Of a stretch of 64,000 nt of DNA, positions 2,541-38,563 are shown one piece after another (the first letter of the stretch is position 1; every line of letters begins with the position of its first letter). Source of the stretch: a phage. A model generated the notes under the pieces. The model had not been told where the DNA came from. It was given only the letters and a program-made list of their open reading frames with translations, and made no database searches. Made by a program: the position numbers and the translations under genes. Location: sequence record PX418213.1. One strand, 5' to 3'.

Positions 2541-2715
2541 GTTGTTTCTCCAGTTTCATCTTTAATAGTCTACAAATAAAATCAATGTCTTCATCCGTGC
2601 CTAGATCTCTGTCTTCAAGAGTTGCCTTGAAGTTTTTAGTCAATTCCATGAGGATAACTTCCCTAGAACGACGTGTTGGCGGAGGTGGATGTCTATACAT
2701 CTTATTTCCTTAATT

Positions 2716-2792
2716 TGGTAGGGGTGGTGGGATTCGAACCCACAAAACCTGAATTTTAAGTCCAGTACCTATGCCAATTCGATTACACCCCC
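2716..2792 (-). tRNA. tRNA with anticodon TAA (Leu-type reading) but short variable arm
   Basis: Acceptor gggggtg/cacccct; T-arm gtggg-ttcgaat-cccac; anticodon arm ctgga-CTTAAAA-ttcag; variable region only about 5 nt. Isotype uncertain. Confidence 0.5.
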
Positions 2793-2893
2793 ATGTAATC
2801 AGTTTATTAGTTGATACATATTATAGCCTAGTGAAAATCCTACTACTAGTCCCACAAACCAACCAATATAATAATCTTTTAGTTTCACAGGTA

Positions 2894-3079
2894 TTATCCT
2901 CTTTCAATATCTAGAGAAATACCACAGTTAGGATTAATACCTGTACCCTTGCAATTTGGGCAAATCCATATATTGCAAAAAGTATCTCCTGCTTCTGCAT
3001 CAGAACTTTCACCAATTCCCCTACACTCAGGGCAGGCGCATTCTTCTAGCTCTTGCTTGAGTTCTTGAAACTTGGACAT
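2894..3079 (-). CDS. small zinc-finger protein with two CxxCxGxG motifs (DnaJ-type)
   Basis: Translation contains CPECRGIG and CPNCKGTG. Confidence 0.45.
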   Translation of the reverse strand: MSKFQELKQELEECACPECRGIGESSDAEAGDTFCNIWICPNCKGTGINPNCGISLDIERG

Positions 3080-3088
3080 ATAGTCTCC

Positions 3089-3277
3089 TTAGTTAATTAC
3101 TTTTGAGGCTTCTAAAGCATTAACGTAGTAAACATCTTCTACATTATACATATAGTCTACTACTTTGTCCATAGCATGGAGTTCGGATGTAGCCTTTACT
3201 AGTCTGTACCCTTGTTTAAACTCGTCCGAACGTTCTCTATCTTGTGCAAATTTAACAGAAACTATGAATAATTCCAT
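3089..3277 (-). CDS. hypothetical protein (62 aa)
   Basis: ORF track only. Confidence 0.35.
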   Translation of the reverse strand: MELFIVSVKFAQDRERSDEFKQGYRLVKATSELHAMDKVVDYMYNVEDVYYVNALEASKVIN

Positions 3278-3296
3278 TAATTGTCCTTATTTAATT

Positions 3297-3374
3297 TGGT
3301 GGCTCCCCGAGGATTCGAACCTACGTACCTTCCGGTTATGAGCCGGGTGCTCATACCATATGAGCTTGAGAACC
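3297..3374 (-). tRNA. tRNA-Met/Ile-like (anticodon CAT)
   Basis: D-arm gctc-atatggtat-gagc; anticodon arm ccgg-CTCATAA-ccgg resembling Met tRNAs; acceptor ggttctc/gggagcc with two G-U; T-stem has only 3 clean pairs. Confidence 0.5.
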
Positions 3375-3380
3375 AAAATC

Positions 3381-3469
3381 TGGCGGAAGAAGTGGGAATC
3401 GAACCCACAAGGCTATATTTCAAACCGACAGATTAGCAATCTGCTGCAATACCGTTATGCTATTCTTCC
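3381..3469 (-). tRNA. tRNA-Ser (anticodon GCT), class II
   Basis: Perfect acceptor ggaagaa/ttcttcc; anticodon arm gcaga-TTGCTAA-tctgt; long extra arm; T-arm gtggg-ttcgatt-cccac; 89 nt with CCA. Confidence 0.7.
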
Positions 3470-4274: not shown

Positions 4275-5261
4275 ATGACAGAAGAAGTAGCTAAGAGTCC
4301 TGAGACCGTCGCTAGCGTTGCAGCAGAACTGCACCGTCACGAGGAATCAGATAAGAAAAAGTGGGAGAAGGTCAGAGCCTACGAAGAAAAACATCGTGAA
4401 CACGATGATGAAGAAGATGACGATGATGAACATTGTCATAAATATGGAAAACATAAAATGCAAGAACCAGTAAACGTATTTACTAGTGGCTTCCCTGGCC
4501 TACTGGGTGGTTACCCAGCAAACGCAGGTGCTTTCGGTGGTGAAGGTATGGGACTATTCGGAGCTATCCTAATCGGTGCTCTATTAACAGGCGGATTCGG
4601 TGGATTCGGTGGATTCGGTGGACGTGGTATAGTTGGTGAAGGTACCGCAGTTGATGCAGTACTTCAGAACCAAGATACCGCTAGTATTCTAGCAGCTATT
4701 AACACTACTCGTACAGAAGCTAATCAGGGTACTGGGGCTGTTTTAAGCGCAGTTAACAATGGTTTTAGCCAGACATCCCAAAACCAGAGCCGTGATACTC
4801 AGTCTGTACTAACTACGATCTATGGTACAGGTGCTAATCTGTCTAATCAGATCTGCCAGGAAACTCGCAATGTTATTCAGGGTCAGTTCGATCTTTCTCG
4901 CCAGATTGATCAATCTTTCGCAGCTAATCAGATAGCTCGTGCACAAGATAAGTTTGATTCTGCACAGATCGCTTTCCAGCAGACTTTACAAACTAATAAC
5001 CAGTTTGCCGCTGTTCAGGCTCAGATGTGTGCTAACCAGAACTCTCTGGAACGTCAGATCGCTGAATGTTGCTGTGAACTTCAGACTGCGATCGCTGGTG
5101 TAACTACTGCGCGTATCCAGGATGAGTTAGACGCATGTCGCCTACGTGAAGCAATCGCTGCGGGTAGCGGTGCTAACGGTCAGGTAATTAATCAAATCGC
5201 TTTAAGTCTTGGTGCTATCACTCAGACTCTGGCTGGTCTGCAGGCTAAACTGCCGGCTTAA
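4275..5261 (+). CDS. hypothetical protein: acidic His-rich N-terminus, glycine-zipper hydrophobic segment, Gln/Asn/Thr-rich C-terminus
   Basis: AGGAGG SD at 4261-4266 then ATG 4275 (the track start at 4266 is GTG); GLFGAILIGALLTGGFGGFGGFGG segment; E. coli-like codon choice; plus-strand gene inside the minus-strand block. Confidence 0.55.
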   Translation: MTEEVAKSPETVASVAAELHRHEESDKKKWEKVRAYEEKHREHDDEEDDDDEHCHKYGKHKMQEPVNVFTSGFPGLLGGYPANAGAFGGEGMGLFGAILIGALLTGGFGGFGGFGGRGIVGEGTAVDAVLQNQDTASILAAINTTRTEANQGTGAVLSAVNNGFSQTSQNQSRDTQSVLTTIYGTGANLSNQICQETRNVIQGQFDLSRQIDQSFAANQIARAQDKFDSAQIAFQQTLQTNNQFAAVQAQMCANQNSLERQIAECCCELQTAIAGVTTARIQDELDACRLREAIAAGSGANGQVINQIALSLGAITQTLAGLQAKLPA

Positions 5262-5282
5262 TATTAAGGGGAGGAGCCCATT

Positions 5283-5699
5283 ATGAGTAAATATGGTTTT
5301 GTAAATAACGGACTTAATCAAAGTATGGGCTCCCAGCAGCCCGTTCCGGGTCTGGATAACCCCTACTTACAACAGTTGCAACAGCGTTTAGCAGAAGCGC
5401 AACAGATGCAGCAACAACTCCAGCAAAACCCTGGAAGTGTAAGTCCTATGCAAATGATGCAGCAAATGAGCGGGCAGTCGCAAATGTCTCAACAAATGCA
5501 GCAACAGATGCCGCAGCAGCAAGTTCAACAACAAACCCAACAACCGCAGGTTTCTGCGGAAGGACAGGCAGTACTAGCCCTTTTCGAAGACTTCGCAAAG
5601 ACAGAGGATGGGAAACAGCTTGTATCACTTATGGGTAAGTTTAATAGCTTCTGCCAAAGCCAAGTTGCAAAAGCTCAAAATGGTGGTAATAACTCCTAA
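5283..5699 (+). CDS. hypothetical Gln-rich protein (138 aa)
   Basis: GGGGAGGAG SD upstream of ATG; highly Gln-rich low-complexity translation; co-transcribed with the 4275 gene. Confidence 0.5.
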   Translation: MSKYGFVNNGLNQSMGSQQPVPGLDNPYLQQLQQRLAEAQQMQQQLQQNPGSVSPMQMMQQMSGQSQMSQQMQQQMPQQQVQQQTQQPQVSAEGQAVLALFEDFAKTEDGKQLVSLMGKFNSFCQSQVAKAQNGGNNS

Positions 5700-5708
5700 G
5701 GAGAAATT

Positions 5709-5903
5709 ATGTGTTGCAGAAAATCTGTTTCGTGCTGCCCAATGCCTGTAGCACGTTGTTGCTCTCCAGCAATGTTTACGCAAATACCGGCGTTCAATCC
5801 GTTTGCCTTTAAGCCTACTCTTATCCTGCCCCCTAGAGTGGATTTTCAGTCAAGATTGGCCTCCCGTATGGGTGGTTGCTGTACACCGAGAGTGTGGTTC
5901 TAA
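5709..5903 (+). CDS. hypothetical Cys-rich small protein (64 aa, 9 Cys)
   Basis: AAGGAG SD at about 5697-5702 then ATG 5709; CC pairs in translation; followed by a rho-independent terminator. Confidence 0.4.
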   Translation: MCCRKSVSCCPMPVARCCSPAMFTQIPAFNPFAFKPTLILPPRVDFQSRLASRMGGCCTPRVWF

Positions 5904-5915
5904 ACCAAAAACAAA

Positions 5916-5949
5916 AGCCCCTGCCGAAAGGTAAGGGGCTTTTTCTTTT
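5916..5949 (+). terminator. rho-independent terminator for the rightward cassette
   Basis: Hairpin agcccct/aggggct followed by ttttctttt. Confidence 0.6.
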
Positions 5950-5959
5950 GCCTTAAATA

Positions 5960-5994
5960 CAGAAAAGCCCGCGCTCTCGGAGGAAACGCGGGCT
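5960..5994 (-). terminator. rho-independent terminator (minus strand) after the SPFH gene
   Basis: Hairpin agcccgcg/cgcgggct; on the minus strand it is followed by TTTTCT. Confidence 0.55.
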
Positions 5995-6018
5995 TGGTTC
6001 GAAGATTACGTGTAACTA

Positions 6019-6966
6019 TTACTTGTTACGCATATCCATGATCATTTGACCATCGTAGCCAGTACCTACCACAGTCTGAGGTACACCACCTTGATATTTC
6101 TGAGCACGAATCATCTCAACTTCCAGTTGTTTCCAACGAATCATCTCAGGAGTAATAGTACGTTGCAATGCGGCGTTAGCTTCAGCTTCTTTCTTAGCTG
6201 CGTACAGTTTAGCATCTGCGTCACGTTCATTAGCAATAGCTTGGTTGTTGCGAGCTTCACGATCTGCTTCTGCTTGTTTAACCTTCTGCTGTGCTTCTTG
6301 TTCAACACGAGCCAGTTCAGCTTTTGCAGCATTAACTTGCTCTTCACGAACTTTGGTATTCTGTACCTGCTCCATGATTACCGGTGGCAAAGTAATATCC
6401 TGAAGGAACACCTGCTTAACTGTGTAACCATATGGGCGTGCATACTCTTCAACTTCCTGTTGAATTGCAGTTTGCAATTGAGCCTGAATTTTAGCATCAA
6501 ACAAATCTTGTGCTTTAGGTACAGACTTACCAAACTCACGAATAGTAGACAGTAATTTTTCAGTTACATATTTGTCTAACGCTTGATCCTGAGTACCTGC
6601 ATTAATACGGTTAATCGGTGCCTTAGAACCATCAAACTGCAACATAACAGTCAGGTCAACAGTGGATTTAAACTTATCCTGACTAGGAACCTGAAGTTTA
6701 TCTAATTTTAGAGCAATATCTTTTGTACTAAAAGTATCGAAAGAAGCAAAAGGATTTACAATATGAAAGCCGGGTAATACTGGATTAGGGTCTACTTTAC
6801 CCAGGAAAGTCTGGGTTTTAACAGTACCGTCTTGAACAACAGTATAGGAGTTAAGGGCCAGAACTAAACCTACCAAACCAACTGCAGCACCAATACCCCA
6901 ACGTTTGATATTACGCATCAATTTTTGCTCATAAGTCAGTTCTTTAGTGTTTTTAGTAGCAAACAT
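6019..6966 (-). CDS. SPFH/band-7 (prohibitin/stomatin-like) membrane protein
   Basis: N-terminal hydrophobic segment (IGAAVGLVGLVLAL), SPFH-like core, Ala/Glu/Gln-rich coiled-coil C-terminus; terminator hairpin downstream on the minus strand. Confidence 0.65.
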   Translation of the reverse strand: MFATKNTKELTYEQKLMRNIKRWGIGAAVGLVGLVLALNSYTVVQDGTVKTQTFLGKVDPNPVLPGFHIVNPFASFDTFSTKDIALKLDKLQVPSQDKFKSTVDLTVMLQFDGSKAPINRINAGTQDQALDKYVTEKLLSTIREFGKSVPKAQDLFDAKIQAQLQTAIQQEVEEYARPYGYTVKQVFLQDITLPPVIMEQVQNTKVREEQVNAAKAELARVEQEAQQKVKQAEADREARNNQAIANERDADAKLYAAKKEAEANAALQRTITPEMIRWKQLEVEMIRAQKYQGGVPQTVVGTGYDGQMIMDMRNK

Positions 6967-7000
6967 ATATTTCCTTTGTTTTAGTTACAGTTAATAAAAT

Positions 7001-7075
7001 TGGCCGAGGTGACAGGATTCGAACCTGCATAAAGGAATTTAGAAGACTCCTGCCTCTCCCTTAGACTACACCCCG
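7001..7075 (-). tRNA. tRNA-Arg (anticodon TCT)
   Basis: Acceptor cggggtg/cacctcg with one G-U; T-loop ggattcgaacc motif on +; anticodon arm ggagt-CTTCTAA-attcc; CCA encoded. Confidence 0.7.
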
Positions 7076-7083
7076 AAATTTAG

Positions 7084-7584
7084 TTATTTAATCAGATTAG
7101 CTTGACTTTCCACTGCTTCTGTAGCAGCTTTCTCAGCAATTCTAGCAGCTCGATTTGTCCTAGCTTTAGCAATTATCTTTTTATATTGTTCATCTATTAG
7201 ATCTTCTATCTCGTCATAGAATCTACATTGGTCTAGATAATTTATTGCATCAACATTATAAAGTTTTATATGTAATGCAGAGCTACGACCACCTTTCAAT
7301 GTGCTTTCTAAGATCTGTGGACGATAACGTCTAAGAGTATCTTTTGCCTTTTTAACTTCACCAGTTTCTTCTCCTAATTGGATTAGGTGATAAAGTCGGG
7401 TGTTATCAACGTAGTGCAGTTCAACACTGTGATATTCACCTTCACGAAGATTAAATCCGGTGAGTTTACTCATCTTTTCCTGTGCTTGTTCCAGTGTAAG
7501 CCGCTCCGTAAAATGAACTACGTACAGGATATGAGGACAACACATCTCTTGATGATCAAATATACAAGTAGTTCCTAGATTCAT
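7084..7584 (-). CDS. hypothetical protein (166 aa)
   Basis: ORF track; co-oriented. Confidence 0.5.
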   Translation of the reverse strand: MNLGTTCIFDHQEMCCPHILYVVHFTERLTLEQAQEKMSKLTGFNLREGEYHSVELHYVDNTRLYHLIQLGEETGEVKKAKDTLRRYRPQILESTLKGGRSSALHIKLYNVDAINYLDQCRFYDEIEDLIDEQYKKIIAKARTNRAARIAEKAATEAVESQANLIK

Positions 7585-8101
7585 AGATATATTTCCTATT
7601 CTAAGTATTTTTAAGAATTCTCATAAAAACTCTTAAAAATACAGACGATACCGGGAGAGTCATAAGTCTCACTCATTAAGTATTTCAAGACAAAATACGG
7701 TAACGTCTATTATTTTCCAGTTTAAGTCAGGGTGACTTAGTGGTTATGTCCTGCGGTATATTGAGGACTCGGTTAGGCTTGGGGTCATGACTTCCCACCT
7801 TTTGCTGCTACTCAACAGGAGTTATCGCGAATTACCTGTGCTATTGTGCACCATTAGTGACATCTCTCATGTCAGCATTTCCCACTTTGTGGATAGCTTG
7901 AAAAACTACTCCGATATGGAGAAAGAACTTCACTATCCTAGAATACCTTCTAAAGTTCTTCTTTAGCCTGGACATAGTTAAATCGTAATAAAACTATTCA
8001 GCAGACTGGTTGGTTAGTCTGGAACCAACTACCGCGTGGTTTAGGCAGTGCGCAACTAACCTCGGAAGCTTTTACGTTAAAAGCACCAGTTATCCAGTTC
8101 T

Positions 8102-8173
8102 TACCGACCGTAGGATTCGAACCTACATCTTCCACCAGTTACGACTTGATAATACCAATTATACTAGGACGGC
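8102..8173 (-). tRNA. tRNA-like element (degenerate; no clean anticodon arm, no CCA)
   Basis: T-arm gtagg-ttcgaat-cctac identical to that of the 830-912 tRNA; acceptor pairs 6 of 7; no convincing anticodon stem-loop found by hand. Confidence 0.3.
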
Positions 8174-8396
8174 AGTGTTACTACATAAGTGATTTCCACA
8201 CCCCACTATTTATAAATTAGAGAAGAGTTTAGGGGAGAGGTTTCAGACGCCTCATTTTACACGTTCTAGCCACTAACCGGGATTGCCGCCCCCTGTGTAC
8301 TAGTTTTACAACTAACCCACCGACTCTATTCAATGCGCTCCGCTTGGGATTCTGCACTCAGCGTAATCGGCTCGCTGTTCCCTAATTTATGAATAT

Positions 8397-8425
8397 ATTA
8401 TACAGAATTTATAAGCATTTAGCAA
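8397..8425 (-). promoter_or_regulatory. sigma70-like promoter (minus strand) firing into an ORF-free region
   Basis: attata/tagcaa with 17-bp spacer; downstream on the minus strand (8390 to about 7600) there is no ORF of 60 aa or more, only the tRNA-like element. Confidence 0.45.
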
Positions 8426-8433
8426 ATAAATTT

Positions 8434-8877
8434 TTAATTAAATTCTCCAGCAATCTGAGCAGCAGTACCACCATCATAACGCCCAGGAAATTCTTCCTTA
8501 ATCGCTTTCATCAGCATACCCTTTGTAATTCCAGGGTTTAGCTTAACTAATTCTGCAAAGTATTTACGAATCTCAGTATCAGATAACTGAGGAGGCAGAT
8601 ACTCCTGCAACCATTTATTTAGAATGTACTCATACTGAGCAGACTGCAAGCTATAACTATCAAGATCTTGACCATGAAGTTTAGCTTTCATCTGGTTAAT
8701 GCTTTTTAGTTGAGCTTTGAGATAAGACACAAATTGTTCAGAAGTGATGAAATCTTTATCAATACGCTGAAGATCCCCAATTATGGTCTGATAGCTTTTA
8801 GCGACTTCTTTATCAGAACCATTAAACTTAGAATCCTGCAAAGCTCTACGCAAAACATCTAAAATATTCTCTTCCAT
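8434..8877 (-). CDS. hypothetical protein, possible GatB/YqeY-like C-terminal domain
   Basis: C-terminal GMLMKAIKEEFPGRYDGGTAAQIAGEF resembles the YqeY/GatB motif; start overlaps the stop of the upstream small ORF (TAATG). Confidence 0.45.
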   Translation of the reverse strand: MEENILDVLRRALQDSKFNGSDKEVAKSYQTIIGDLQRIDKDFITSEQFVSYLKAQLKSINQMKAKLHGQDLDSYSLQSAQYEYILNKWLQEYLPPQLSDTEIRKYFAELVKLNPGITKGMLMKAIKEEFPGRYDGGTAAQIAGEFN

Positions 8878-30546: not shown

Positions 30547-30763
30547 AAAATGGGAAACAAGGAAGTTCCCAGTAAAAGAACGTAAAGTTCCTGCTTACAA
30601 CACTTCGGAAAAGCTATGTAGGGTGGTTCCTGCTAGACTAGCTGGCATCCCTAACATATCCGAGTGGTTACTTAAACAACGGAAAACAAACGTGTCTCTT
30701 CGCATCGGCTTTGAGTTAGATAAAGTCTATGCTGAACTTGCTTCTTTGCTCAAGGAATCGTAA
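30530..30763 (+). CDS. hypothetical protein (about 77 aa)
   Basis: In-frame ATG within track ORF 30419..30763, preceded by GGAGAG; overlaps HNH gene end. Confidence 0.35.
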   Translation: MTVKNKKWETRKFPVKERKVPAYNTSEKLCRVVPARLAGIPNISEWLLKQRKTNVSLRIGFELDKVYAELASLLKES

Positions 30764-30771
30764 AAATTTAT

Positions 30772-30800
30772 TTGCTTTCAGGAAAATTTTTCTGTATAAT
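30772..30800 (+). promoter_or_regulatory. sigma70-like promoter (plus strand) with conserved leader
   Basis: atTTGCTTtcaggaaaatttttctgTATAATagattcataaatttgagagaggag. Confidence 0.5.
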
Positions 30801-30831
30801 AGATTCATAAATTTGAGAGAGGAGTTTAAAT

Positions 30832-31536
30832 ATGGCTGGTTCTCGCAGAAAGAAACATATCCATGAAATCCCTGATGAAGTCTTTAAAAAGGTTATAGAG
30901 CATCTGGAGAACGGTGGTACTAAGAAAGCAGCATGTGAAATGCTCGGCGTATCATCCAATCCAACTATGGAAAGGATGATTGAGGAGTGGCAAGACCGCC
31001 AGATCCAAGTTGCCGAAATGAAGAAAAAGAAACGCGGCACACTTATTGAAGGCATTGAGTTAGCTAACGTTATTGAGCAGTATTTATCTGGTGATTCTTT
31101 CGAAGAAATTGCCGATCGTAATTACCGCTCTGTAGCAATGGTTAAATCTGTTCTGGAACGATATGGTGCTCTACTTCGTTTGAACGATATTGTAGATCCA
31201 TTGAATCCTCCAATTATTCCTGATGATGCTGTAGCAGAAGAATTTGCAGTTGGTGAGCTTGTTTGGGTTCCTGGATACCAGTGTATTGGTGAAATCAAAA
31301 AAGCAATGGATAATCCTGTTGGTTGCTATCGTGTATGGCTTCTATCAGAAGGCAAACAACAGAACGTCCATTATATGAATTACGAGCTGGCTTCTGTTAA
31401 ACATCTGGAAAAATTAGGGGTTGACGTAAAATCTCTAGGGTACAAGTGGACTCGTGAAGAAGTAATTTCATTAATTAATGAAGCTGTTAAGGCTGCCTTG
31501 AAACTTGATAAAGAAAAAGGAAAACGCCGTGAGTAA
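30832..31536 (+). CDS. hypothetical protein with N-terminal helix-turn-helix-like segment
   Basis: GGTKKAACEMLGVSSNPTMERM resembles an HTH; strong promoter and SD upstream. Confidence 0.5.
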   Translation: MAGSRRKKHIHEIPDEVFKKVIEHLENGGTKKAACEMLGVSSNPTMERMIEEWQDRQIQVAEMKKKKRGTLIEGIELANVIEQYLSGDSFEEIADRNYRSVAMVKSVLERYGALLRLNDIVDPLNPPIIPDDAVAEEFAVGELVWVPGYQCIGEIKKAMDNPVGCYRVWLLSEGKQQNVHYMNYELASVKHLEKLGVDVKSLGYKWTREEVISLINEAVKAALKLDKEKGKRRE

Positions 31537-31780
31537 GCTAACAGATTTGCTTAAAGATGGGGAAGTAAAAACTCTGTATCGTAGAAGCTGGGATAATGAT
31601 AATAATGGCTTAGTATTACTAACTCTAGATGCTGACTCAGATGTAGTTACCCAACATACCTGGGTAGCTGGTAATTATCCCTATAGTGAGGTTGTTACGT
31701 TAACAGTATGCGAAGCTATTGCCGACGATTGGGAGGTTGCCAGCATCGATGATATGCTCGCTGTTGGCCTGGTGGAGTAA
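31529..31780 (+). CDS. hypothetical protein (about 83 aa)
   Basis: Track ORF 31505..31780 trimmed to the GTG after AAAGGA; start uncertain. Confidence 0.35.
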   Translation: MSKLTDLLKDGEVKTLYRRSWDNDNNGLVLLTLDADSDVVTQHTWVAGNYPYSEVVTLTVCEAIADDWEVASIDDMLAVGLVE

Positions 31781-31883
31781 CTACAGAAAAATTTCAGTTG
31801 CTTAATCCTATAATTCTTGATATAATATTCTCATAGTTTGAAAGAACTATTCTGTTTAATTCTTAATTAAGGAAATATAAAAT

Positions 31884-32294
31884 ATGACTACTCCAACTCA
31901 GTGGACTGATGAACTGTTCGAAAAAATGTCTTCCGAATACGTTGCTCGTATGGAGCAATTCCCAGAGGATGAACGTCCGGGTGTTAGCATGGAAATTGTT
32001 AGCGAAATTGCCCAGGAAAATGGTGTAACTCCGAACGGTTTTCGTATGAAGCTGACTAAAGCAGGTTTGTATATCAAGAAAGCTGCTGGCTCCGCTTCTA
32101 AATCTAGCGCATCTACTGGAGAAAAAGCTTCTGGTGGTTCTCGTACTTCCAAAGCCCAAGCTCATGCCGATCTTCGTTCAGCATTCTCTGATGCTGGCTT
32201 AGCACCAGATTTTCTGGATGATGCAATTATCGACAAACTGACCGGTAAAGCGGCTGCTCATCTGGCAGAAGCAATCCGAGCTATCACTAAGTAA
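31884..32294 (+). CDS. hypothetical protein (136 aa)
   Basis: ORF track; promoter-like -10 elements upstream. Confidence 0.5.
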   Translation: MTTPTQWTDELFEKMSSEYVARMEQFPEDERPGVSMEIVSEIAQENGVTPNGFRMKLTKAGLYIKKAAGSASKSSASTGEKASGGSRTSKAQAHADLRSAFSDAGLAPDFLDDAIIDKLTGKAAAHLAEAIRAITK

Positions 32295-32330
32295 TTTTTA
32301 GATAAATCCACCAACAAAAGGAACACAGTT

Positions 32331-32627
32331 ATGACCAAAGCTGAAATTATCGCACAATGTGAAAAATTTGGTGAGTTTTATCTTCATTACGAGAAACTTC
32401 GTCAGAAAGGAACCACGTACCTTCAGGGTACGATGGAATTTGATCCAGCCCAAGATAAATATCTGGCTGAGCGTATTAAACGTGAACGTATTCGTAAAGC
32501 GAAAGATGATGAGATCCTTGTCTTCTCTCGTACTAATGATAGCTTCCGTTTTATTCCTGTCGAGAAAGTCCGTCGTGTGACTAGCCTCCAATCAGAGTTA
32601 GATCGTGCTTCTCCAGTAGGCCGATAA
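32331..32627 (+). CDS. hypothetical protein (98 aa)
   Basis: ORF track; terminator hairpin at about 32638-32660. Confidence 0.5.
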   Translation: MTKAEIIAQCEKFGEFYLHYEKLRQKGTTYLQGTMEFDPAQDKYLAERIKRERIRKAKDDEILVFSRTNDSFRFIPVEKVRRVTSLQSELDRASPVGR

Positions 32628-32637
32628 GAAACCAATT

Positions 32638-32660
32638 AGCCCCTATATGGGGCTTTTTGT
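32638..32660 (+). terminator. rho-independent terminator
   Basis: agcccc-tatat-ggggct followed by ttttt. Confidence 0.55.
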
Positions 32661-32677
32661 GTATTTGGGATAAGTAA

Positions 32678-32986
32678 ATGAGCGAACAGGTAAATCAAAA
32701 CTATGAAGGACACGTTGATGACCAGTCCATCATACTCTGGGAGAAGGAGGGAGAACAAATAAGATTAACAGTATCTGAATTTCGTGGGAATCTATACATG
32801 GGTATTCGTTACTGGCTTCTTGATATTAATGATGAATGGTTTCCAACGAAATCTGGCTTCTCTTTTCCTTACACCCTAGAAACAACATCACAGCTTTTCT
32901 ATGCGTTTACACAGATTCTTAGCGAATCTGAGGTTTTACATGAAGTACAGAAACGAGCTGAAGAACTCAAAGCCAAGAATGCCTAG
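32678..32986 (+). CDS. hypothetical protein (102 aa)
   Basis: ORF track; terminator overlapping the stop. Confidence 0.45.
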   Translation: MSEQVNQNYEGHVDDQSIILWEKEGEQIRLTVSEFRGNLYMGIRYWLLDINDEWFPTKSGFSFPYTLETTSQLFYAFTQILSESEVLHEVQKRAEELKAKNA

Positions 32987-33012
32987 TTCTTGGCTTTTTC
33001 TTTATAAATGTA

Positions 33013-33042
33013 TTTGCTTTCAACTCAGTTTTGTTATATAAT
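33013..33042 (+). promoter_or_regulatory. sigma70-like promoter (plus strand)
   Basis: TTTGCTttcaactcagttttgttaTATAAT. Confidence 0.45.
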
Positions 33043-33072
33043 ATTTATATAAATTAATGAGAGGGTTGCAAA

Positions 33073-33345
33073 GTGAAAAAGATAAATATAAGTACACTTA
33101 AACCTTTCCCATATATCGGACAGCCTCTTATACTTATGTGGGAGGAGAAGATTAATGGAGAAAAGTATTCTAAAATTAGAAGTGGGTATAAGCTGATTTC
33201 ACTTCATTACGAAAAAGAAATATTAACAGCTGAAATATACTCTCCATTGTCAGATAGGCTAGTAAAAACCACGTATTTGCATCTCTGCAAAAATTTTACA
33301 TGGCACGGATCCACTAGACAGCCCACGTACTATGAGGCAGAATAA
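33073..33345 (+). CDS. hypothetical protein (90 aa, GTG start)
   Basis: ORF track; AT-rich; GAGAGGG SD. Confidence 0.4.
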   Translation: MKKINISTLKPFPYIGQPLILMWEEKINGEKYSKIRSGYKLISLHYEKEILTAEIYSPLSDRLVKTTYLHLCKNFTWHGSTRQPTYYEAE

Positions 33346-34317
33346 ATGACTAATATAAAAGACTTTATTAAACGTTGTCAAGAAGCGTATTACCAGGGAA
33401 TGTCTTTAATCTCTGACGAAGAATATGATCGTCTGATTAAAAGATTTCCGTTAGAAGAAGAGATTGGCCCTAAGGGCGATATTCCACATCTGTATCGTAT
33501 GTATTCTTTACAGAAAGTTTATTATAATCGTGGAGATAAACCCCCATTTAACCCATTAGGTCAGGTAGAAACTGACAAGTTAGATGGTTGTGCGATTTCT
33601 CTATTATATATTAATGGCGAATTTGTTCAAGCGCTAACTCGTGGTAATGGCATTTTAGGGAATGATGTCACAAGCAACGTAAGATTGCTGAATATCCCTG
33701 AAAAGATTTCCCAAAAAGTACCTACTCAAATCACTGGTGAAGTTCTAATTACAAAAGAAGTAGAAAATAAACGTAACTTTGCCTCTGGTGCTATTAACCT
33801 CAAAGATAGCGATGATTTCGTACAACGTATCGGGGAAGGTGGTTTAATCTTCGTTGCATACGGTATCCAGTGTTCTGCTGAATCTGTAGGTATTACAGAA
33901 TCGTATTTAAAAGATATGCTCTGGCTAGAGAATGAAGATTTCTTAACAGTTGTTAATGTGCGTTCCTTCTTTAAATGGATTCCGACGGACGGTAAAGTTG
34001 TTCGTATTAATGACAACAACAAATTCTTCCGAGAAGGCTGGACTAATAAATTCCCTCGTGGGGCATTCGCTATTAAAGAGGATGAAGAAGGCGAGATTAC
34101 AACTCTTACTAAAGTTGAATGGCAGGTAGGGGCTTCTGGTAAAGTAACTCCAGTTGGTTATTTCGAACCGGTAATTATTGATGATGCTACAATTGTTAAA
34201 GCGACTCTTAATAACGTTGATTATATTAACTCTCTTGATCTAGAGATCGGTTGCCAGATTCGAGTGATTCGTGCTGGTGGTGTAATCCCGTGCATAGTAG
34301 AGCGAGTATACGATTAA
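33346..34317 (+). CDS. ligA: NAD-dependent DNA ligase, adenylation-domain subunit (split ligase, part A)
   Basis: KxDG adenylation motif (ETDKLDGCAISL) and TRGNGILGNDVT block; protein stops after the adenylation/OB region. Confidence 0.7.
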   Translation: MTNIKDFIKRCQEAYYQGMSLISDEEYDRLIKRFPLEEEIGPKGDIPHLYRMYSLQKVYYNRGDKPPFNPLGQVETDKLDGCAISLLYINGEFVQALTRGNGILGNDVTSNVRLLNIPEKISQKVPTQITGEVLITKEVENKRNFASGAINLKDSDDFVQRIGEGGLIFVAYGIQCSAESVGITESYLKDMLWLENEDFLTVVNVRSFFKWIPTDGKVVRINDNNKFFREGWTNKFPRGAFAIKEDEEGEITTLTKVEWQVGASGKVTPVGYFEPVIIDDATIVKATLNNVDYINSLDLEIGCQIRVIRAGGVIPCIVERVYD

Positions 34318-34460
34318 TACATAACCCTTTGCTACCCATCTACCATATCGGAATTATAAAGTGGTTATTGACATTTTCGCCGCTTAGGTATATACTATTA
34401 TCATTCAGTTGAGGGATAGAAAGTTATGGCGAGGGTAAGCAAAGTTAGTTAAAATTGTAG

Positions 34461-34489
34461 TTGCTAAATGCTTAAATACTTGCTATAAT
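34461..34489 (+). promoter_or_regulatory. sigma70-like promoter (plus strand) between the two ligase genes
   Basis: TTGCTAaatgcttaaatacttgcTATAAT with 17-bp spacer; a second TTGACA/TATACT pair lies at about 34367-34395. Confidence 0.5.
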
Positions 34490-34519
34490 ATTTATATAAA
34501 TTGATAAGGAAGAAATTTG

Positions 34520-35299
34520 ATGAAAATCGAAATTCCAACACAATGTCCCTCTTGTGGTTCTAAGCTAGATCTTGTCAACGGACAATTATTCTGTCGGAAT
34601 AAGTCCAACTGTCCAGCGCAATCAAGTAAGTTAATTGAGAACTTCTGTTCAAAAATGAAGTTAAAGGGCTTTGGCCCAAAAACTATTGAGAAGCTGGAGC
34701 TGACGAAGATTTCAGAACTATTTTACCTAACCGAAGAAGATTTGGTTAGAGCCGTGGGTAGCAAGGTTGCCGCTAAGTTAATTAGCGAATTAAATACTAA
34801 AGTTCGCGGAGACATTGACTTTGGTTCAGTTCTCGGTTCTTTAGGAATCCCTCTAATTGGAGAGGTTGCAGCAAAGAAATTATCCCAAAATTGCACTAGC
34901 TTCCACGATGTGAAGGCTGACGGCAAGGCTGGAGAAAACTATAAAGCCTGGCTAAATTCCCCACAAGGCAAGGATGTTATCGAACTACCGTGGAAATTCT
35001 CAACTGGTATTAAGGGCACTAAAGCTAATATTATCATTACGGATGAATTAGTTGCCCGGCCAAATGGAATCACGGTATGTATTACCGGATCTTTGCAAGA
35101 TTTTGCAAATAGAACGGATGCAACAAACTATTTAGAAAGTCTAGGATATACGGTTAAGAAATCCGTTACCAAAGACGTTAAATACCTAATCTGTGAGGAT
35201 GAATCAAAACGTTCTTCCTCATCTTATAAGAAAGCCGAAACGAATGGGATAGAAATCCTGTCGATTAAAGAACTATTGGAGAAAAATAATAATGTCTAA
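34520..35299 (+). CDS. ligB: NAD-dependent DNA ligase, Zn-finger/HhH/BRCT subunit (split ligase, part B)
   Basis: Cys4 zinc finger (CPSCGS...CRNKSNCPAQ), HhH-like segments, BRCT-like C-terminus; start at ATG 34520. Confidence 0.65.
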   Translation: MKIEIPTQCPSCGSKLDLVNGQLFCRNKSNCPAQSSKLIENFCSKMKLKGFGPKTIEKLELTKISELFYLTEEDLVRAVGSKVAAKLISELNTKVRGDIDFGSVLGSLGIPLIGEVAAKKLSQNCTSFHDVKADGKAGENYKAWLNSPQGKDVIELPWKFSTGIKGTKANIIITDELVARPNGITVCITGSLQDFANRTDATNYLESLGYTVKKSVTKDVKYLICEDESKRSSSSYKKAETNGIEILSIKELLEKNNNV

Positions 35300-36059
35300 A
35301 CTGAACTGGAACGTAGAAGGTGTAACCGAGTCTCTGAAAGCAAAAGCCACTGCTCTGGGTGTTGCTGTAATCTCTCAAGAACAAGTAGCTGCTATCGCTG
35401 CTGAACTGGCCGCTGAAACTGGCAAAGATGTTACTGCTCGCTCTGTTGGCTCTAAACTGCGTAAAGAAGGTTTTGAAGTACAGAAAGCTAACGAAGTACA
35501 GAAATCCCCGTGGACTCCTGAGCAGGAAGCTGAACTGGTTGATTTCCTGAACGCTCATGCTGGTCAGTATACCTATGCTGAGATCGCTGCTGCTGTAGCT
35601 GGTGGTCAGTTCGGTGCTAAACAGGTACAGGGTAAGATTCTGAGTCTGGAAATGACCGCTTCTGTTAAACCAACCGAAAAAGCTGCTGCTGTTCGTTCCT
35701 TCACTCCGGATGAAGAAACTGATTTTGTTAATCAGGTTGTTGCTGGTGCTACTATTGAAGCTATCGCTGCTCACTTCGGTCGCAATATTAAGCAGATCCG
35801 CGGTAAAGCTCTGAGTCTGCTTCGTGAAGGTCGTATCGCTGCTATGCCAGTACAGGAAACTTCAAGTGCTAAAACTCGTGAAGATCTGTTAGAAGGTCTG
35901 GATCTGGTTAACATGACTGTTGCTGAGATCGCTGAGAAAACTGGTAAGTCTGAGCGCGGTGTTAAATCTATGCTGTCTCGTCGTGGTCTGGTTGCTAAGG
36001 ACTATGATGGTGCCGCTAAGCGTGCTAAACTGGATGCAAAAGCTGCGGCTGCTGAATAA
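35292..36059 (+). CDS. abundant Ala-rich DNA-binding-like protein
   Basis: Strongly E. coli-optimal codon usage; two internally similar halves; position upstream of the replicative helicase. Function inferred. Confidence 0.45.
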   Translation: MSKLNWNVEGVTESLKAKATALGVAVISQEQVAAIAAELAAETGKDVTARSVGSKLRKEGFEVQKANEVQKSPWTPEQEAELVDFLNAHAGQYTYAEIAAAVAGGQFGAKQVQGKILSLEMTASVKPTEKAAAVRSFTPDEETDFVNQVVAGATIEAIAAHFGRNIKQIRGKALSLLREGRIAAMPVQETSSAKTREDLLEGLDLVNMTVAEIAEKTGKSERGVKSMLSRRGLVAKDYDGAAKRAKLDAKAAAAE

Positions 36060-36141
36060 TCTGGTAAATTAAACCTAAGGGGAGGGGGCTATGCTCCTTC
36101 CCCTTTTTGCATTTAGAAGGCACGAAAGCGTGCAAAGGAGA

Positions 36142-37614: not shown

Positions 37615-38501
37615 GTAGAATAACAGAACTACTTGATCTGAAAGGCATTGAATATAAAGACACAGGTGGGGACATCCTCATCTGTTGTCTCAATCCAGAT
37701 CATGACGATAAACACCCAAGTTTGCGTATTGATCCTGAAACAGGTATTATGCACTGCTTGAGTTGTGGCTTCGGTAAAGGTATACCGAGCATTTACCATT
37801 ATTTTAATGAGACTCAGTACCGACAGTCCCCAAGACTATCGCAGGTACGCAAAAAGATTTCAGAGATTAGGAATGGATCAACGAATCTTGCAATTCCTGA
37901 ATCTGCTTACCTTTTCGAAGGTGATTTCCGAGGTATAAGTTCTAAGACCTTGAAGAAATATTTTGCTTTCCAACACCAAGCAGACTGGGAAGGCAGAATT
38001 GTATTCCCAATCACAGATGCTGTTGGACGCAATATCCTATTTTTGGGTCGTTCTATAAACAGTTCTGCCCCTCCTAAATACTTAGTAAAACCAAAACAAG
38101 TTTCACCACCTATTTTCCCTGTACGATATAATACTCCAGTTCTTATTCTAGTTGAAGGTATCTTTGATATGCTGAACCTAGAGGATAATGGTATAGACTA
38201 TGCTTCTTGCTGCTTTGGTACACATCAGTTTACTTCGGATAACATTGCAGATAAGTTCAGCCCTTATATTATTGCTGGTGTAAAAGTTGTTGTTATCTTA
38301 CTAGATAATGATGCTTCTGGTAATAAGGCTGCACAAGCATTGGCCAAATTAATTCGCACAAAAACGCGTTTAACACCTGTAGTTGCTAACTTTCTCCTGC
38401 CTGAAGGCAAAGATCCGGGTGATTTAAACAAAGATGAAATTGATATGTTAGCAAAACGTATTGAAATTTTAGTTGCTGAATCGCTTAAAGATTTGGTATA
38501 A
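37611..38501 (+). CDS. DNA primase (zinc-binding domain plus Toprim)
   Basis: Zinc-binding Cys/His cluster (CCLNPDHDDKHPS...CLSCGFGKG) and Toprim acidic motifs (LVEGIFDMLNL, LLDNDASGNKAA). Confidence 0.75.
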   Translation: MSRITELLDLKGIEYKDTGGDILICCLNPDHDDKHPSLRIDPETGIMHCLSCGFGKGIPSIYHYFNETQYRQSPRLSQVRKKISEIRNGSTNLAIPESAYLFEGDFRGISSKTLKKYFAFQHQADWEGRIVFPITDAVGRNILFLGRSINSSAPPKYLVKPKQVSPPIFPVRYNTPVLILVEGIFDMLNLEDNGIDYASCCFGTHQFTSDNIADKFSPYIIAGVKVVVILLDNDASGNKAAQALAKLIRTKTRLTPVVANFLLPEGKDPGDLNKDEIDMLAKRIEILVAESLKDLV

Positions 38502-38563
38502 TATATTGGTAAGTTAGAGAAGAAACACTGAAGTTATACTTACTTACCAAGAGGAGATTAAAT

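Follow-up and report, generated by a model that had tools for sequence, protein, structure and literature searches.

In this study, the minus-strand region at 7600-8430 of a phage genome segment (sequence record PX418213.1; the whole 64,000-nucleotide stretch analysed is called the window) was best explained, with high probability, as the rnaX gene of the T5 family (Demerecviridae), encoding a multi-domain non-coding RNA of about 786 nt. The locus itself is not new; the gene has been annotated in the T5 reference genome for about 20 years. Comparative analysis showed a fold of four or more domains for RNAX, with a long-range helix closing each one. From the 5' end, these are a variable domain, a domain whose 12-bp helix bears a tRNA-like module, a variable middle domain, and a conserved 3' core, beyond which lie a three-way junction and a long terminal hairpin. 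The first-pass annotation had proposed a promoter-driven, structured non-coding RNA tied to tRNA genes, and this is borne out by covariation, the lack of a coding signal, and the RNAX annotation of the homologue. Its suggestion of stable small RNAs was right as to a structured non-coding product, but the evidence points to one large RNA rather than several small ones, because long-range closing helices join the parts.

The locus is 97-99% identical to annotated and unannotated rnaX loci of T5-like phages, and a blastn search found the region kept in 540 phage records. GenBank lists rnaX/RNAX as a misc_RNA, "stable RNA with unknown functions", in T5 (NC_005859), BF23, DT57C, and DT571/2; according to this note, RNAX accumulates as a stable RNA. 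A description of RNAX or its structure, or a primary source of the note, was not found in the literature searched (RNAX, T5 stable RNAs, T5 transcriptomes). BF23 matches query positions 5-839 with 97.4% identity, and the matching interval is annotated as rnaX and its promoter; Tequintavirus copies, including BF23, are 95-99% identical over 835/861 bases. DT57C is 95.2% identical, with the interior of the 5' domain absent. In T5, which was included in the 3' domain alignment, rnaX is annotated at the syntenic position. The interior of domain 1 is deleted in T5 (719 nt) and DT57C (636 nt), leaving the closing stem alone, and T5 has an additional 83-nt insertion in the 3' domain; BF23 (784 nt) has the full 5' domain, as does the phage under study. 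RNAX versions of 638-1290 nt occur in Tequintavirus, Epseptimavirus, Sugarlandvirus, and phage Eos, and one of 985 nt occurs in Pectobacterium phage DU_PP_V. Serratia phage Kamaji carries a partial relative (domain 2).

Wider searches were also performed. A metagenome scan with the pattern AGTCATGACC-N18-45-ATAACCAC was too loose, matching at least 120 stretches; five real RNAX loci were among the matches listed (L158, L175, L189, L233, L263), all near known types. A genome-collection scan with a domain-2 motif gave two loci (L277, L278) in which every other RNAX feature is missing; both are probably coding DNA matched by chance. Retrieval from IMG/VR via the YqeY-like protein yielded mostly near-identical isolates, and retrieval via the cell-wall hydrolase mostly unrelated phages, which were reused as negative controls for the covariance model. 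In many deposited T5-like genomes, spurious small ORFs or "tRNA-OTHER/Sec/Pro/Ser" are annotated over the RNAX locus.

The promoter anticipated at about 8397-8425 was placed by a consensus scan at exactly 8425-8397, the sole minus-strand promoter-like site near the region. We read its sequence (..TTGCTA..TATAAT..TTCATAAATT) as that of a stereotyped, PN25-like early promoter of T5. By similarity to T5 early promoters, transcription probably starts at the A at 8390; the 3' end was placed at the end of the terminal hairpin, 7605. No minus-strand ORF longer than 45 aa follows the promoter for about 790 nt, in agreement with the earlier description of the strand as ORF-free: the longest minus-strand ORFs in 7600-8430 are 45, 44, 42, and 25 aa, and the longest on the plus strand are 60 and 59 aa. 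The claim that the region is richer in GC than its neighbours is correct, and the difference is modest (0.42-0.44 inside, compared with 0.35-0.37 in the DNA directly bordering it); the coding stretch 4350-6300 exceeds the RNAX region in GC.

The ORFs of 42-60 aa on both strands could in principle be unannotated small protein genes, and some records encourage this idea: those of Sugarlandvirus list three to five ORFs of 38-64 aa, and others list "hypothetical proteins". However, the same Sugarlandvirus sequence type also occurs in records that have no annotated ORF at this place, and between lineages no small ORF was conserved in position or frame. Codon periodicity was also absent (variable columns per codon phase 23/26/24, p=0.91), single-base gaps were frequent (55 in the RNAX alignment), and every sense frame of the 3' domain contained 3-10 stops. 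A set of small protein products is thus barely credible. In the structural alignments, G.U cells outnumbered A.C cells (104 vs 10 in one, 32 vs 3 in the other), which was used as strand evidence.

Conservation of structure across T5-like phages was confirmed by compensatory pairs in two independent domain alignments (feature coordinates are given in Table 1). In the 3' domain alignment, which has 64 pairs, 97.9% of cells were paired compared with 38-48% for slid partners, and 17 pairs showed double changes compared with 7.0+-1.4 in shuffles (0/500 reached this value) and 0-3 when slid. In the tRNA-like domain alignment (32 pairs), 98.2% of cells were paired compared with 27-49% for slid partners, and 17 pairs again showed double changes compared with 5.8+-1.7 in shuffles (0/500); these shuffle controls overstate significance, since the aligned sequences are mutually related. 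Domains and helices have been swapped, deleted, or replaced between lineages, whereas the closing helices and the short single-stranded motifs AAGUGGGAAA, GGAGUCAUGACC, AUAACCAC, and AACUGGAA stayed constant. Fixed closing helices and motifs amid swapped helices are the pattern of a large "ornate" functional RNA.

Table 1. Features of the RNAX locus and the inferred transcription unit (positions in the window)
Feature	Position	Strand	Basis or remarks
Sigma-70 early promoter, TTGCTA-17-TATAAT	8397..8425	-	Consensus scan, 10/12; homologue of T5/BF23 promoter P16-17
RNAX, large structured non-coding RNA, 786 nt (inferred start to end of terminal hairpin)	7605..8390	-	Homology, covariation, no coding signal
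Domain 1	8212..8390	-	Closing helix, invariant hairpin, variable inner helices
Domain 1 closing helix	AUAAAUUAGGGA (8390-8379) x UCUCUAAUUUAU (8223-8212)	-	Starts at RNA 5' end
Invariant hairpin CAGCG-AGCCGAUUA-CGCUG	8377-8359	-	Within domain 1
Domain 2	8036..8206	-	Closed by GUGG (8206-8203) x CCAC (8039-8036)
12-bp helix with tRNA-like module at its tip	8085..8193	-	8193-8180 (AUCACUUAUGUAGU) x 8098-8085 (ACUGGAUAACUGGU)
tRNA-like module	8102..8173	-	Rfam tRNA (RF00005), 35.5 bits
Hairpin GCUUUU-AACGU-AAAAGC	8068..8084	-	Directly 3' of module-bearing helix
Domain 3, most variable part	7888..8035	-	Structure read by eye
Domain 4a, conserved 3' core	7740..7887	-	Closed by GUGG (7885-7882) x CCAC (7743-7740); holds the next four hairpins
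Hairpin CUGACAU..AUGUCAC	7875-7857	-	Domain 4a
Loop-A hairpin, apical palindrome UCGCGA (7830-7825)	7813..7840	-	Palindrome comparison
Loop-B hairpin, palindrome GUCAUGAC (7791-7784) in or at apical loop	7775..7800	-	Conservation and stem covariation
Hairpin GUCCU..AGGAC	7768-7748	-	Domain 4a
Hairpin AGUCA-CCC-UGACU	7725..7737	-	Helix 8, invariant
Conserved single-stranded UAAACUGGAA	7722-7715	-	After hairpin 7725..7737; kept in all genera
Domain 4b, three-way junction with two hairpins	7643..7709	-	Closed by UAGACG (7709-7704) x CGUCU (7647-7643)
Terminal 17-bp AU-rich hairpin GUAUUUUUAAGAGUUUU..GAGAAUUCUUAAAAAUAC	7605..7642	-	Helix 10
Rest of inferred transcription unit	5965..7584	-	ORF, tRNA, and terminator scans; T5 annotation order
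166-aa ORF	7584-7084	-	Between RNAX and tRNA-Arg
tRNA-Arg(UCU)	7075-7001	-	
SPFH/band-7 lipoprotein gene	6966-6019	-	
Intrinsic terminator	5995-5965	-	

It is highly improbable that the region is functionless debris, made of decayed tRNA genes and inter-tRNA spacers and conserved only through the close kinship of the phages. The tRNA-like unit does resemble a degraded tRNA, the region is length-variable, mosaic, and deleted in the viable phage T5 st0, and its single-sequence folding energy is unremarkable (z = -1.33; 2/20 shuffles fold equally well). Against this reading, double changes hold dozens of pairs between lineages whose identity is as low as 70-79% or that blastn cannot align, stems vary around unchanging loop motifs, and a single stretch of the region is tRNA-like at E ≤ 10.

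In domain 1, 44 pairs were predicted and 11 carried double changes, in an alignment that is noisy in the variable part; the invariant hairpin of this domain reads CAGCA..UGCUG in DU_PP_V, a compensatory change. The closing helix of domain 2 has three mutually compensating states across subfamilies: GUGG/CCAC (Tequintavirus, Epseptimavirus, Sugarlandvirus, and Eos), ACGG/CCGU (DU_PP_V), and UAGG/CCUA (Kamaji). The hairpin following the module-bearing helix (helix 5 of the tRNA-like domain alignment) is 100% paired, with one pair found as UA:7 AU:3 CG:2. The hairpins read in domain 3 include GGAUAG..CUAUCC around CUCC-AUAU-CGGAG, and the segment 7964-7892 is common to Sugarlandvirus.

The Rfam tRNA model matched exactly the positions where a degenerate tRNA-like unit had been noticed (E=1.3e-5 for the region; gathering score 29). 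The covariance-model scan thus recovered the tRNA and no other family: in 7560-8440 at E ≤ 10 the only additional matches were three to sRNA/cis-regulatory families, all at chance level, and in six divergent relatives at E ≤ 1 no family besides tRNA was found, with the GOLLD and ROOL models included. The module has an acceptor stem (GCCGUCC/GGUCGGU), a D arm, and a perfect T arm (GUAGG-UUCGAAU-CCUAC). A regular anticodon arm (5-bp stem, 7-nt loop, assignable anticodon) is absent; its place is taken by a 3-bp stem with a conserved 6-nt loop, GUAACU, where the Rfam alignment skips 18 nt. ARAGORN called no tRNA at 8102-8173. No 3' CCA is encoded: in every lineage A-AGA comes after the module (which ends ..GGUCGGU here). 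The window's 12 bona fide tRNA genes all have an encoded CCA, and their identity to the module does not exceed 72%. The acceptor, T, and mini-anticodon stems covary (helices 2-4). The helix that carries the module (helix 1) is paired in 98.6% of cells, and nine of its 12 pairs changed on both sides. Other lineages have a long hairpin at the site of the anticodon arm, or no module; in Epseptimavirus L020, L021, L026, and L028 a plain hairpin replaces the module while the carrying helix and the rest of RNAX are kept. The unit is an optional module, carried by a covarying helix. It is not, as had been proposed, the only recognisable element of the region, in which the 3' domain (7887-7605) is universally conserved. 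The module may serve as a second RNase P site or as a handle for tRNA-binding factors.

These features raise the question of whether the module, or the whole RNA, is a tRNA-mimicking decoy that diverts a tRNA-acting host factor (a tRNA-targeting defence nuclease or toxin, RNase P, the CCA-adding enzyme, or a modification enzyme) and so shields phage translation. The conserved and covarying acceptor, T, and D arms are consistent with this, as is the position of the gene in the tRNA island of T5, where a counter-defence role of tRNAs is documented: tRNA-Lys of T5 counters PARIS (PMC11464382), and tRNA-Tyr counters the Eco7 (Ec78) retron (as cited in PMC10644984). Directly upstream of RNAX lies the YqeY-like gene, of the GatB/YqeY family with the PHROG annotation "tRNA amidotransferase", and the accessory nature of the region is as expected of host-range functions. 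However, anticodon nucleases usually target the anticodon loop, which the module does not have; the four Epseptimavirus loci have a plain hairpin instead of the module; and the most conserved part of the RNA is the 3' core. A decoy role is accordingly considered quite unlikely.

For the 3' core, a covariance model was built on 13 Tequintavirus, Epseptimavirus, and Eos sequences. It recovered the helix-swapped L021 (36 bits, E=4e-8) and matched CitS1 (25 bits) and Sugarlandvirus (21-24 bits, E about 1e-4 to 8e-4), and it gave nothing below E=0.1 in 69 unrelated loci. DU_PP_V, Kamaji, and Felixounavirus Alf5 were not detected by this model at E ≤ 1; their kinship is judged from motifs, blastn matches in domain 2, and compensatory closing helices. 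In the model-fitted alignment, which leans towards structure and includes two weak rows, 28 of 34 pairs showed double changes. A GUGC/GCAC hairpin read by eye in the 3' core was unsupported in T5 and Eos; a long helix predicted by RNAalifold, UGGUGC.CAAUAG x CUGUUG.GUAGCA, fits better, and fits Sugarlandvirus too. Domain 4b was read by eye because MAFFT misaligns that part; its helices have different sequences in other lineages, and single-sequence folding of the window predicts the same closing helix. The terminal hairpin is 98.3% paired, and one of its pairs has changed on both sides, from UA to CG. With no U-run after it, the hairpin is not a terminator.

Gene order around RNAX matches that of T5: P16-17 follows the YqeY-like gene (T5.081), and after RNAX come tRNA-Arg(UCU), the SPFH/lipoprotein gene (T5.080), and a bidirectional terminator. 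The sole difference is the 166-aa ORF inserted before tRNA-Arg, which is also present in NR01, falkor, S126, and CitS1 and has no Pfam or PHROGs match. No minus-strand terminator-like site lies inside the RNAX region, the first being that at 5995-5965. Host RNA polymerase transcribes RNAX from P16-17, a strong early promoter, and RNAX heads a predicted unit running on through tRNA-Arg and the SPFH-family gene to this terminator. In T5 and BF23, the terminal hairpin stands immediately before tRNA-Arg and the rnaX annotation extends to the base preceding this tRNA (about 7600 in window numbering), so that RNase P cutting at the tRNA 5' end would free RNAX as a discrete molecule. Here, the intervening ORF means that such release would leave RNAX joined to mRNA. 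The st0 deletion of T5 runs from inside the YqeY-like gene to near tRNA-Asp and removes the whole RNAX region; since the phage is viable, the role of RNAX is accessory.

This arrangement could also mean that the 0.8-kb RNA is a cis-acting leader without a function in trans, which locally organises processing (RNase P/E/III entry) and the stability or timing of tRNA-Arg and the SPFH mRNA, and here also of the 166-aa ORF. RNAX is co-transcribed with tRNA-Arg and the SPFH gene, with no terminator between them, and in this window it is the 5' UTR of an ORF. Moreover, the linkage of the terminal hairpin to tRNA-Arg(UCU) recurs outside this phage family: in the unrelated Felixounavirus Alf5, the hairpin adjoins a tRNA-Arg(UCU)-like gene. 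However, 640-1290 nt, four covarying domains, and loop motifs that are invariant across subfamilies are more than a leader should require. Several ORFs separate RNAX from tRNA-Arg in Sugarlandvirus and Eos, and in Kamaji a separate promoter and a separate terminator (with a long T run) serve the related RNA, which is not followed by a tRNA. A purely local role is therefore unlikely.

A function in trans as an RNA scaffold would be compatible with two self-complementary apical loops of the 3' core. The palindrome of loop A differs by lineage yet persists: UCGCGA here, CGCGCG in T5, CUCGAG in L021, and UCCGCGGA in Sugarlandvirus, with CGCG alone (a 4-nt palindrome) kept in Eos and L142. A 6-nt palindrome is expected by chance 0.07-0.24 times per shuffled loop. 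In loop B, GTCATGAC is present in 34/34 distinct RNAX sequences and also in DU_PP_V, and the flanking stem (helix 5 of the 3' alignment) covaries (CG:7/UA:5 and GU:6/UA:5/GC:2/AU:1). Because GUCAUGAC is invariant, loop B gives no covariation test of pairing. Switching of palindromes has been used to support intermolecular kissing loops in OLE and GOLLD (PMC12286853). By analogy with GOLLD and ROOL, RNAX may be a trans-acting scaffold that would self-associate through the invariant GUCAUGAC and the switching UCGCGA/CUCGAG/CCGCGG/CGCGCG; this is offered as a possibility, at less than even probability. A little more tentatively still, RNAX could represent an unrecognised class of giant ornate phage RNA, a GOLLD/ROOL analogue that would form an RNA-only dimer or multimer via the two loops and display or enclose the tRNA-like module.

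GOLLD, a giant ornate RNA of phages and prophages, forms a 14-mer RNA nanocage; it has a conserved 3' region and a variable 5' region, sometimes with tRNAs in a linker, and both GOLLD and ROOL, which also forms a nanocage, are phage RNAs found near tRNA islands (PMC12286853). The RNA-only homo-oligomers of these families are held together by kissing loops and A-minor contacts. RNAX resembles GOLLD in being phage-encoded within a tRNA island, in its length (several hundred to more than 800 nt), in its conserved 3' and variable 5' parts, and in palindromic apical loops that switch sequence, and its tRNA-like module parallels the tRNA sometimes embedded in GOLLD (PMC12286853). It shares with ROOL a phage-borne location near tRNA islands, a large and highly structured form, and the lack of a known protein partner or function (PMC12286853). 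In contrast, RNAX has no detectable sequence or structure homology with GOLLD, has other motifs and helices, and occurs in lytic T5-like phages of Enterobacterales, and its multimerisation is hypothetical. RNAX is also more modular and length-variable than ROOL, matches no Rfam family of that kind, and its assembly is likewise hypothetical. GOLLD and ROOL are thus suggested as the closest analogy, in kind and not by homology.

Among other known systems, BF23/T5-family RNAX is the same gene, with the same promoter P16-17 and the same place, between the YqeY-like gene on one side and tRNA-Arg and the SPFH gene on the other. The tRNA-like domain of tmRNA, viral 3' TLS, and mascRNA similarly combine an acceptor and T-arm mimic, without a decoding anticodon loop, with a bigger transcript; in RNAX, however, a covarying helix of a 0.8-1.3 kb RNA carries the mimic as an optional plug-in without an encoded CCA. 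Rfam tmRNA models did not match the module. Weak tmRNA-type Rfam matches in Felixounavirus Alf5 were below threshold, adjoined a real tRNA, and were rejected. Species 1 and 2 of T4 are small stable RNAs of a phage tRNA cluster, and six further stable RNAs are annotated in the same tRNA region of T5 (RNAI, RNAIII, RNAIV, RNA1, RNA2, RNA2H); the small T5 RNAs are 100-170 nt, whereas RNAX is 0.8-1.3 kb.

In sum, an RNA listed as an unexplained "stable RNA" in the reference of a classic model phage since about 2004-2005 is conserved in two named subfamilies of Demerecviridae and in several of the family's genera; its pairs covary extensively and its architecture is modular. Large structured non-coding RNAs without an assigned function are rare, and recent work has shown that GOLLD and ROOL, the best known among phages, form RNA-only nanocages; their biology is little understood, partly because their hosts are hard to work with. 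RNAX makes this old question testable in E. coli and T5, for which viable deletions (st0) exist. If the proposed self-association is true, RNAX would be the first self-assembling ornate RNA in a genetically tractable coliphage (T5), and its role in infection or counter-defence would be directly testable.

The window comes from a T5-like phage (Demerecviridae, Tequintavirus-like), and the ORF-free locus lies within its tRNA-gene region, in which ARAGORN places 11 tRNA genes on the minus strand. The feature is not new. The BF23 tRNA-region record lists the equivalent stretch as a misc_RNA, rnaX ("RNAX, stable RNA with unknown functions", 784 nt), with "promoter P16-17" in front and tRNA-Arg directly after. 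rnaX is likewise annotated in DT57C (636 nt), DT571/2 and the T5 reference genomes NC_005859 and AY543070 (719 nt, 40848-41566); in most other deposited genomes the locus is blank or holds hypothetical ORFs or "tRNA-OTHER/Sec/Ser/Pro". With a 1-kb query around RNAX, megablast matched 419 phage records (mostly 95-99% identical) and blastn 540. No paper describing RNAX was found in the literature searched. The heat-stable T5 deletion mutant st0 (AY692264) lacks the stretch that begins within the YqeY-like gene and ends close to tRNA-Asp, rnaX included, showing that RNAX is dispensable in the laboratory and accessory for growth. The T5Mos deletion (30661-38625) in the PARIS study stops short of rnaX (PMC11464382).

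The first-pass annotation had proposed a promoter-driven, structured non-coding RNA; covariation, the missing coding signal and the rnaX annotation indicate that this was essentially right. Its component observations hold as well: the minus-strand promoter is present, the longest minus-strand ORFs from the promoter to 7600 are 45, 44, 42 and 25 aa (none reaches 60 aa), GC content is 0.42-0.44 inside versus 0.35-0.37 in the flanks, and the tRNA-like unit scores 35.5 bits with the Rfam tRNA model (gathering score 29), ARAGORN being silent. Comparison with the stereotyped early promoters of T5 would put the transcription start at the A of TTCATAAATT (8390). The single terminator-like site on the minus strand lies far downstream. 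Weak Rfam matches at 5909-5994 (-), anti-hemB (29.1 bits) and ctRNA_p42d, coincide with this bidirectional hairpin and are almost certainly merely the terminator. In the Rfam scan that had been suggested, tRNA was the sole family matched in 7560-8440 (E<=10), three chance-level sRNA or cis-regulatory hits aside, and six divergent relatives matched no other family at E<=1; thus, RNAX is no detectable member of GOLLD, ROOL or another curated family. The scan also gave a tRNA (40.3 bits), missed by ARAGORN, that adjoins tRNA-Ser; the DT57C record has tRNA-Ile(CAU) at the matching position.

Features of the RNAX locus in the window, with RNAX lengths and 3'-core model scores among phages
Feature	Position (strand)	Sequence, size or score
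YqeY-like gene	8434-8877 (-)	
Promoter	8425-8397 (-)	TTGCTA-17-TATAAT, 10/12 consensus
RNAX	8390-7605 (-)	
Domain 1 closing stem	5' end with 8223-8212	AUAAAUUAGGGA with UCUCUAAUUUAU
Domain 2 closing helix	8206-8203 with 8039-8036	GUGG/CCAC
Helix enclosing tRNA-like unit	8193-8180 with 8098-8085 (-)	12 bp
tRNA-like unit	8102-8173	
3' domain closing helix	7885-7882 with 7743-7740 (-)	GUGG/CCAC
3' domain hairpin		UGACAU/AUGUCA in window; UGGCAU/AUGCCA in BF23; UCACG/CGUGA in T5
3' domain stem		around loop AGUCAUGA
3' domain helix		GUCCU/AGGAC in window; GCACU/AGUGU in T5; GUUCU/AGAAC in Epseptimavirus
3' domain hairpin		AGUCA-CCY-UGACU
3' domain terminal hairpin		17 bp
166-aa ORF	7584-7084 (-)	
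tRNA-Arg	7075-7001	
Terminator hairpin	5995-5965	
tRNA-Ser	3381-3469	
tRNA missed by ARAGORN	3300-3374 (-)	40.3 bits
RNAX length, DT57C type		638 nt
RNAX length, T5		721 nt
RNAX length, window phage and BF23		786 nt
RNAX length, other Tequintavirus		about 801 nt
RNAX length, Epseptimavirus		823-1103 nt
RNAX length, phage Eos		1115 nt
RNAX length, Sugarlandvirus of Klebsiella		1258-1290 nt
3'-core score, window		179 bits
3'-core score, L021 (Epseptimavirus)		36 bits, E=4e-8
3'-core score, Citrobacter phage CitS1		25 bits
3'-core score, Sugarlandvirus copies		21-24 bits, E about 1e-4 to 8e-4

The predicted structure is conserved across T5-like phages. For 14 distinct aligned sequences from Tequintavirus, Epseptimavirus and Eos, the RNAalifold consensus of the 3' domain (7887-7605) has 64 pairs, 17 of which stay paired through changes on both sides, against 0-3 with partners slid by 1-3 columns and 7.0±1.4 in shuffles. 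The pair-count test found 97.9% of cells paired (38-48% when slid), and none of 500 shuffles matched the covariation score, the percentage paired or the doubly changed pairs. The tRNA-like domain, aligned from 12 sequences including Eos, Sugarlandvirus and Serratia phage Kamaji, covaries as well: 98.2% of cells in its 32 pairs are paired versus 27-49% slid, and its 17 doubly changed pairs were reached in 0/500 shuffles (5.8±1.7). G.U cells exceed A.C cells (104 vs 10 and 32 vs 3 in two alignments) in these structures predicted on the minus strand, which is compatible with an RNA read from that strand. The single-sequence folding energy is unexceptional (z = -1.33), so the structural case is based on comparative evidence. 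The comparison shows a non-coding, multi-domain RNA whose structure is under selection in several genera and in two named Demerecviridae subfamilies, and evolutionary debris is a very improbable description of it. T5 rnaX (NC_005859 40848-41566) and a metagenomic locus (L233) carry an 83-nt insertion in the 3' domain with its own hairpin, flanked by the direct repeat AGUCACCUUGAC(U/A)UAAACUGGAA; it has the look of a module inserted through duplication.

The tRNA-like unit is enclosed by a helix in which 9/12 pairs covary, which indicates a module displayed by a larger RNA, not a free-standing gene. Its T stem covaries, as does its acceptor stem (U.U in the window, U-A in BF23, A-U in T5, A-U plus U-A in DT57C), and its anticodon arm is reduced to three covarying base pairs capped by the conserved loop GUAACU. 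The module is followed by A-AGA, versus the CCA encoded by 12/12 real tRNA genes in the window. Four loci (L027, L031, L175, L263) have a long covarying hairpin in place of the anticodon arm, and four of Epseptimavirus (L020, L021, L026, L028) retain the carrier helix with a small hairpin instead of the module. Such lineages without the module weaken the proposal that RNAX is a tRNA-mimic decoy against host tRNA-directed factors, which we regard as distinctly unlikely. The domain 2 closing helix is ACGG/CCGU in Pectobacterium phage DU_PP_V and UAGG/CCUA in Kamaji, giving three states that compensate one another. In T5 and DT57C the interior of domain 1 is lost, and the closing stem persists as a hairpin. 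Immediately upstream of RNAX lies a gene for a YqeY-like protein (Pfam PF09424, 25.4 bits, just below the cut-off of 27; PHROG "tRNA amidotransferase", E=3e-47). A domain of this kind contacts tRNA in GatB-type enzymes, making the protein a candidate partner of the module by analogy; Sugarlandvirus, Eos and Kamaji do not have the gene at this place.

No ORF shared in place or frame between lineages, and thus no conserved small protein gene, was found across RNAX. Over the 190 nt of the 3' domain that align well, substitutions show no 3-base periodicity (variable columns 23/26/24 by codon phase, p=0.91); the domain alignment has 55 single-base gaps, and each sense frame holds 3-10 stops. That the locus acts through small proteins is hardly credible. 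The records of the Sugarlandvirus phages Torridgeon and GlastoCabaret (L027, L030; 1550-2820) place 3-5 ORFs (38-64 aa) and a "tRNA-Pro" on RNAX, and in pzk-kv7, of identical sequence type, the locus is unannotated; these unconserved ORFs are likely annotation artefacts. Between the terminal hairpin and tRNA-Arg, the window has a 166-aa ORF for which AGGAAA is a plausible Shine-Dalgarno sequence and which has no match in Pfam or PHROGs. It is missing in T5, BF23 and DT57C and sporadic in Tequintavirus/Epseptimavirus (NR01, falkor, S126, CitS1, L021, L023); it may be a mobile or often-lost accessory gene for which RNAX serves as 5' UTR. The 5' domain of RNAX is a gene-insertion hot spot. Domain 1 is replaced in falkor, CitS1 and related phages (L024:1551-2033, L144:1044-1526, L018 from the RNAX start) by a functionally uncharacterised 160-aa ORF, its ATG overlapping the inferred transcription start, and in phage MSP1 a "homing endonuclease" lies beneath the RNAX match.

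A length survey of 46 loci (30 distinct sequences, later 34), bracketed by the common start motif and the terminal hairpin, showed wide variation. A covariance model of the 150-nt 3' core, built from 13 Tequintavirus, Epseptimavirus and Eos sequences, recovered copies as far as Sugarlandvirus and had no match under E=0.1 among 69 unrelated phage/MAG loci. L021 is a natural variant that retains the motifs with most helices of other sequence. In the model-fitted core alignment, which is biased towards the model because it was fitted to it, 28/34 pairs are doubly changed and 93.4% of cells are paired versus 30-50% slid. An IMG/VR motif scan found a 985-nt version in DU_PP_V, sharing a compensatory 5' hairpin (CAGCA..UGCUG), the domain-2 architecture with tRNA-like unit, GGAGUCAUGACC and the terminal hairpin. 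Different genera swap modules, such as the two alternative domain 1 hairpins GAGGCGUCUGAAACCUC and CGGGAGCUGUCCCG. Kamaji (L032, about 2555-3390) has an RNAX-like unit of ~800 nt behind a like-type promoter, with a homologous domain 2, a different 3' part, and its own intrinsic terminator followed by a run of >20 T. The sole gene annotated there, the 369-nt opposite-strand ORF KAMAJI_01620 (locus 2649-3017), lies across the tRNA-like module and is probably not a real gene. This stand-alone unit, together with the size and conservation of RNAX, weakens the view of RNAX as a purely cis-acting processing leader, which seems rather unlikely. In the tRNA cluster of FelixO1-like myoviruses (L145, Felixounavirus Alf5, about 1500-1622), a copy of the RNAX terminal hairpin (..CUUUAAGGGCUUU..GAGUCUUUAAAGAUA, 85% identity) stands behind a promoter-like TTGACA..TATAGT and is immediately followed by a tRNA-Arg(UCU)-like gene that lacks annotation (Rfam 31.7 bits), which suggests a hairpin-plus-tRNA-Arg cassette common to unrelated phage families.

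Single-stranded motifs (AAGUGGGAAA, GGAGUCAUGACC, AUAACCAC, AGUCACCYUGAC and AACUGGAA) are invariant in all genera while the helices change. Two apical loops of the 3' core, A and B, are self-complementary. Adjacent loop nucleotides are unable to pair mutually within one chain. Loop B contains GUCAUGAC in 34/34 distinct sequences; the palindrome of loop A is UCGCGA in most phages, CGCGCG in T5, CUCGAG in L021, UCCGCGGA in Sugarlandvirus and CGCG only in Eos and L142. By chance, 7-24% of shuffles hold a 6-nt palindrome in each loop, so the pattern is suggestive and no proof. In OLE and GOLLD, "palindrome switching" served as evidence that kissing loops join separate molecules (PMC12286853). Like GOLLD and ROOL, RNAX is phage-encoded within a tRNA island, belongs to the same size class (0.6-1.3 kb), combines a conserved 3' part with a variable 5' part, and contains a tRNA or tRNA-like insert and self-complementary loops (PMC12286853). 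The likeness is close in kind; it is a lead and does not imply membership.

RNAX would be made early, from P16-17, and in T5 and BF23 would be freed by an RNase P cut at tRNA-Arg. The tRNA-like module is possibly an additional cut site or a handle through which RNAX is bound. Our tentative proposal, by analogy with GOLLD and ROOL, is that RNAX might self-associate via loops A and B and act as an RNA scaffold or particle. RNAX is of interest as a large, ornate, covariation-supported RNA of a model phage.
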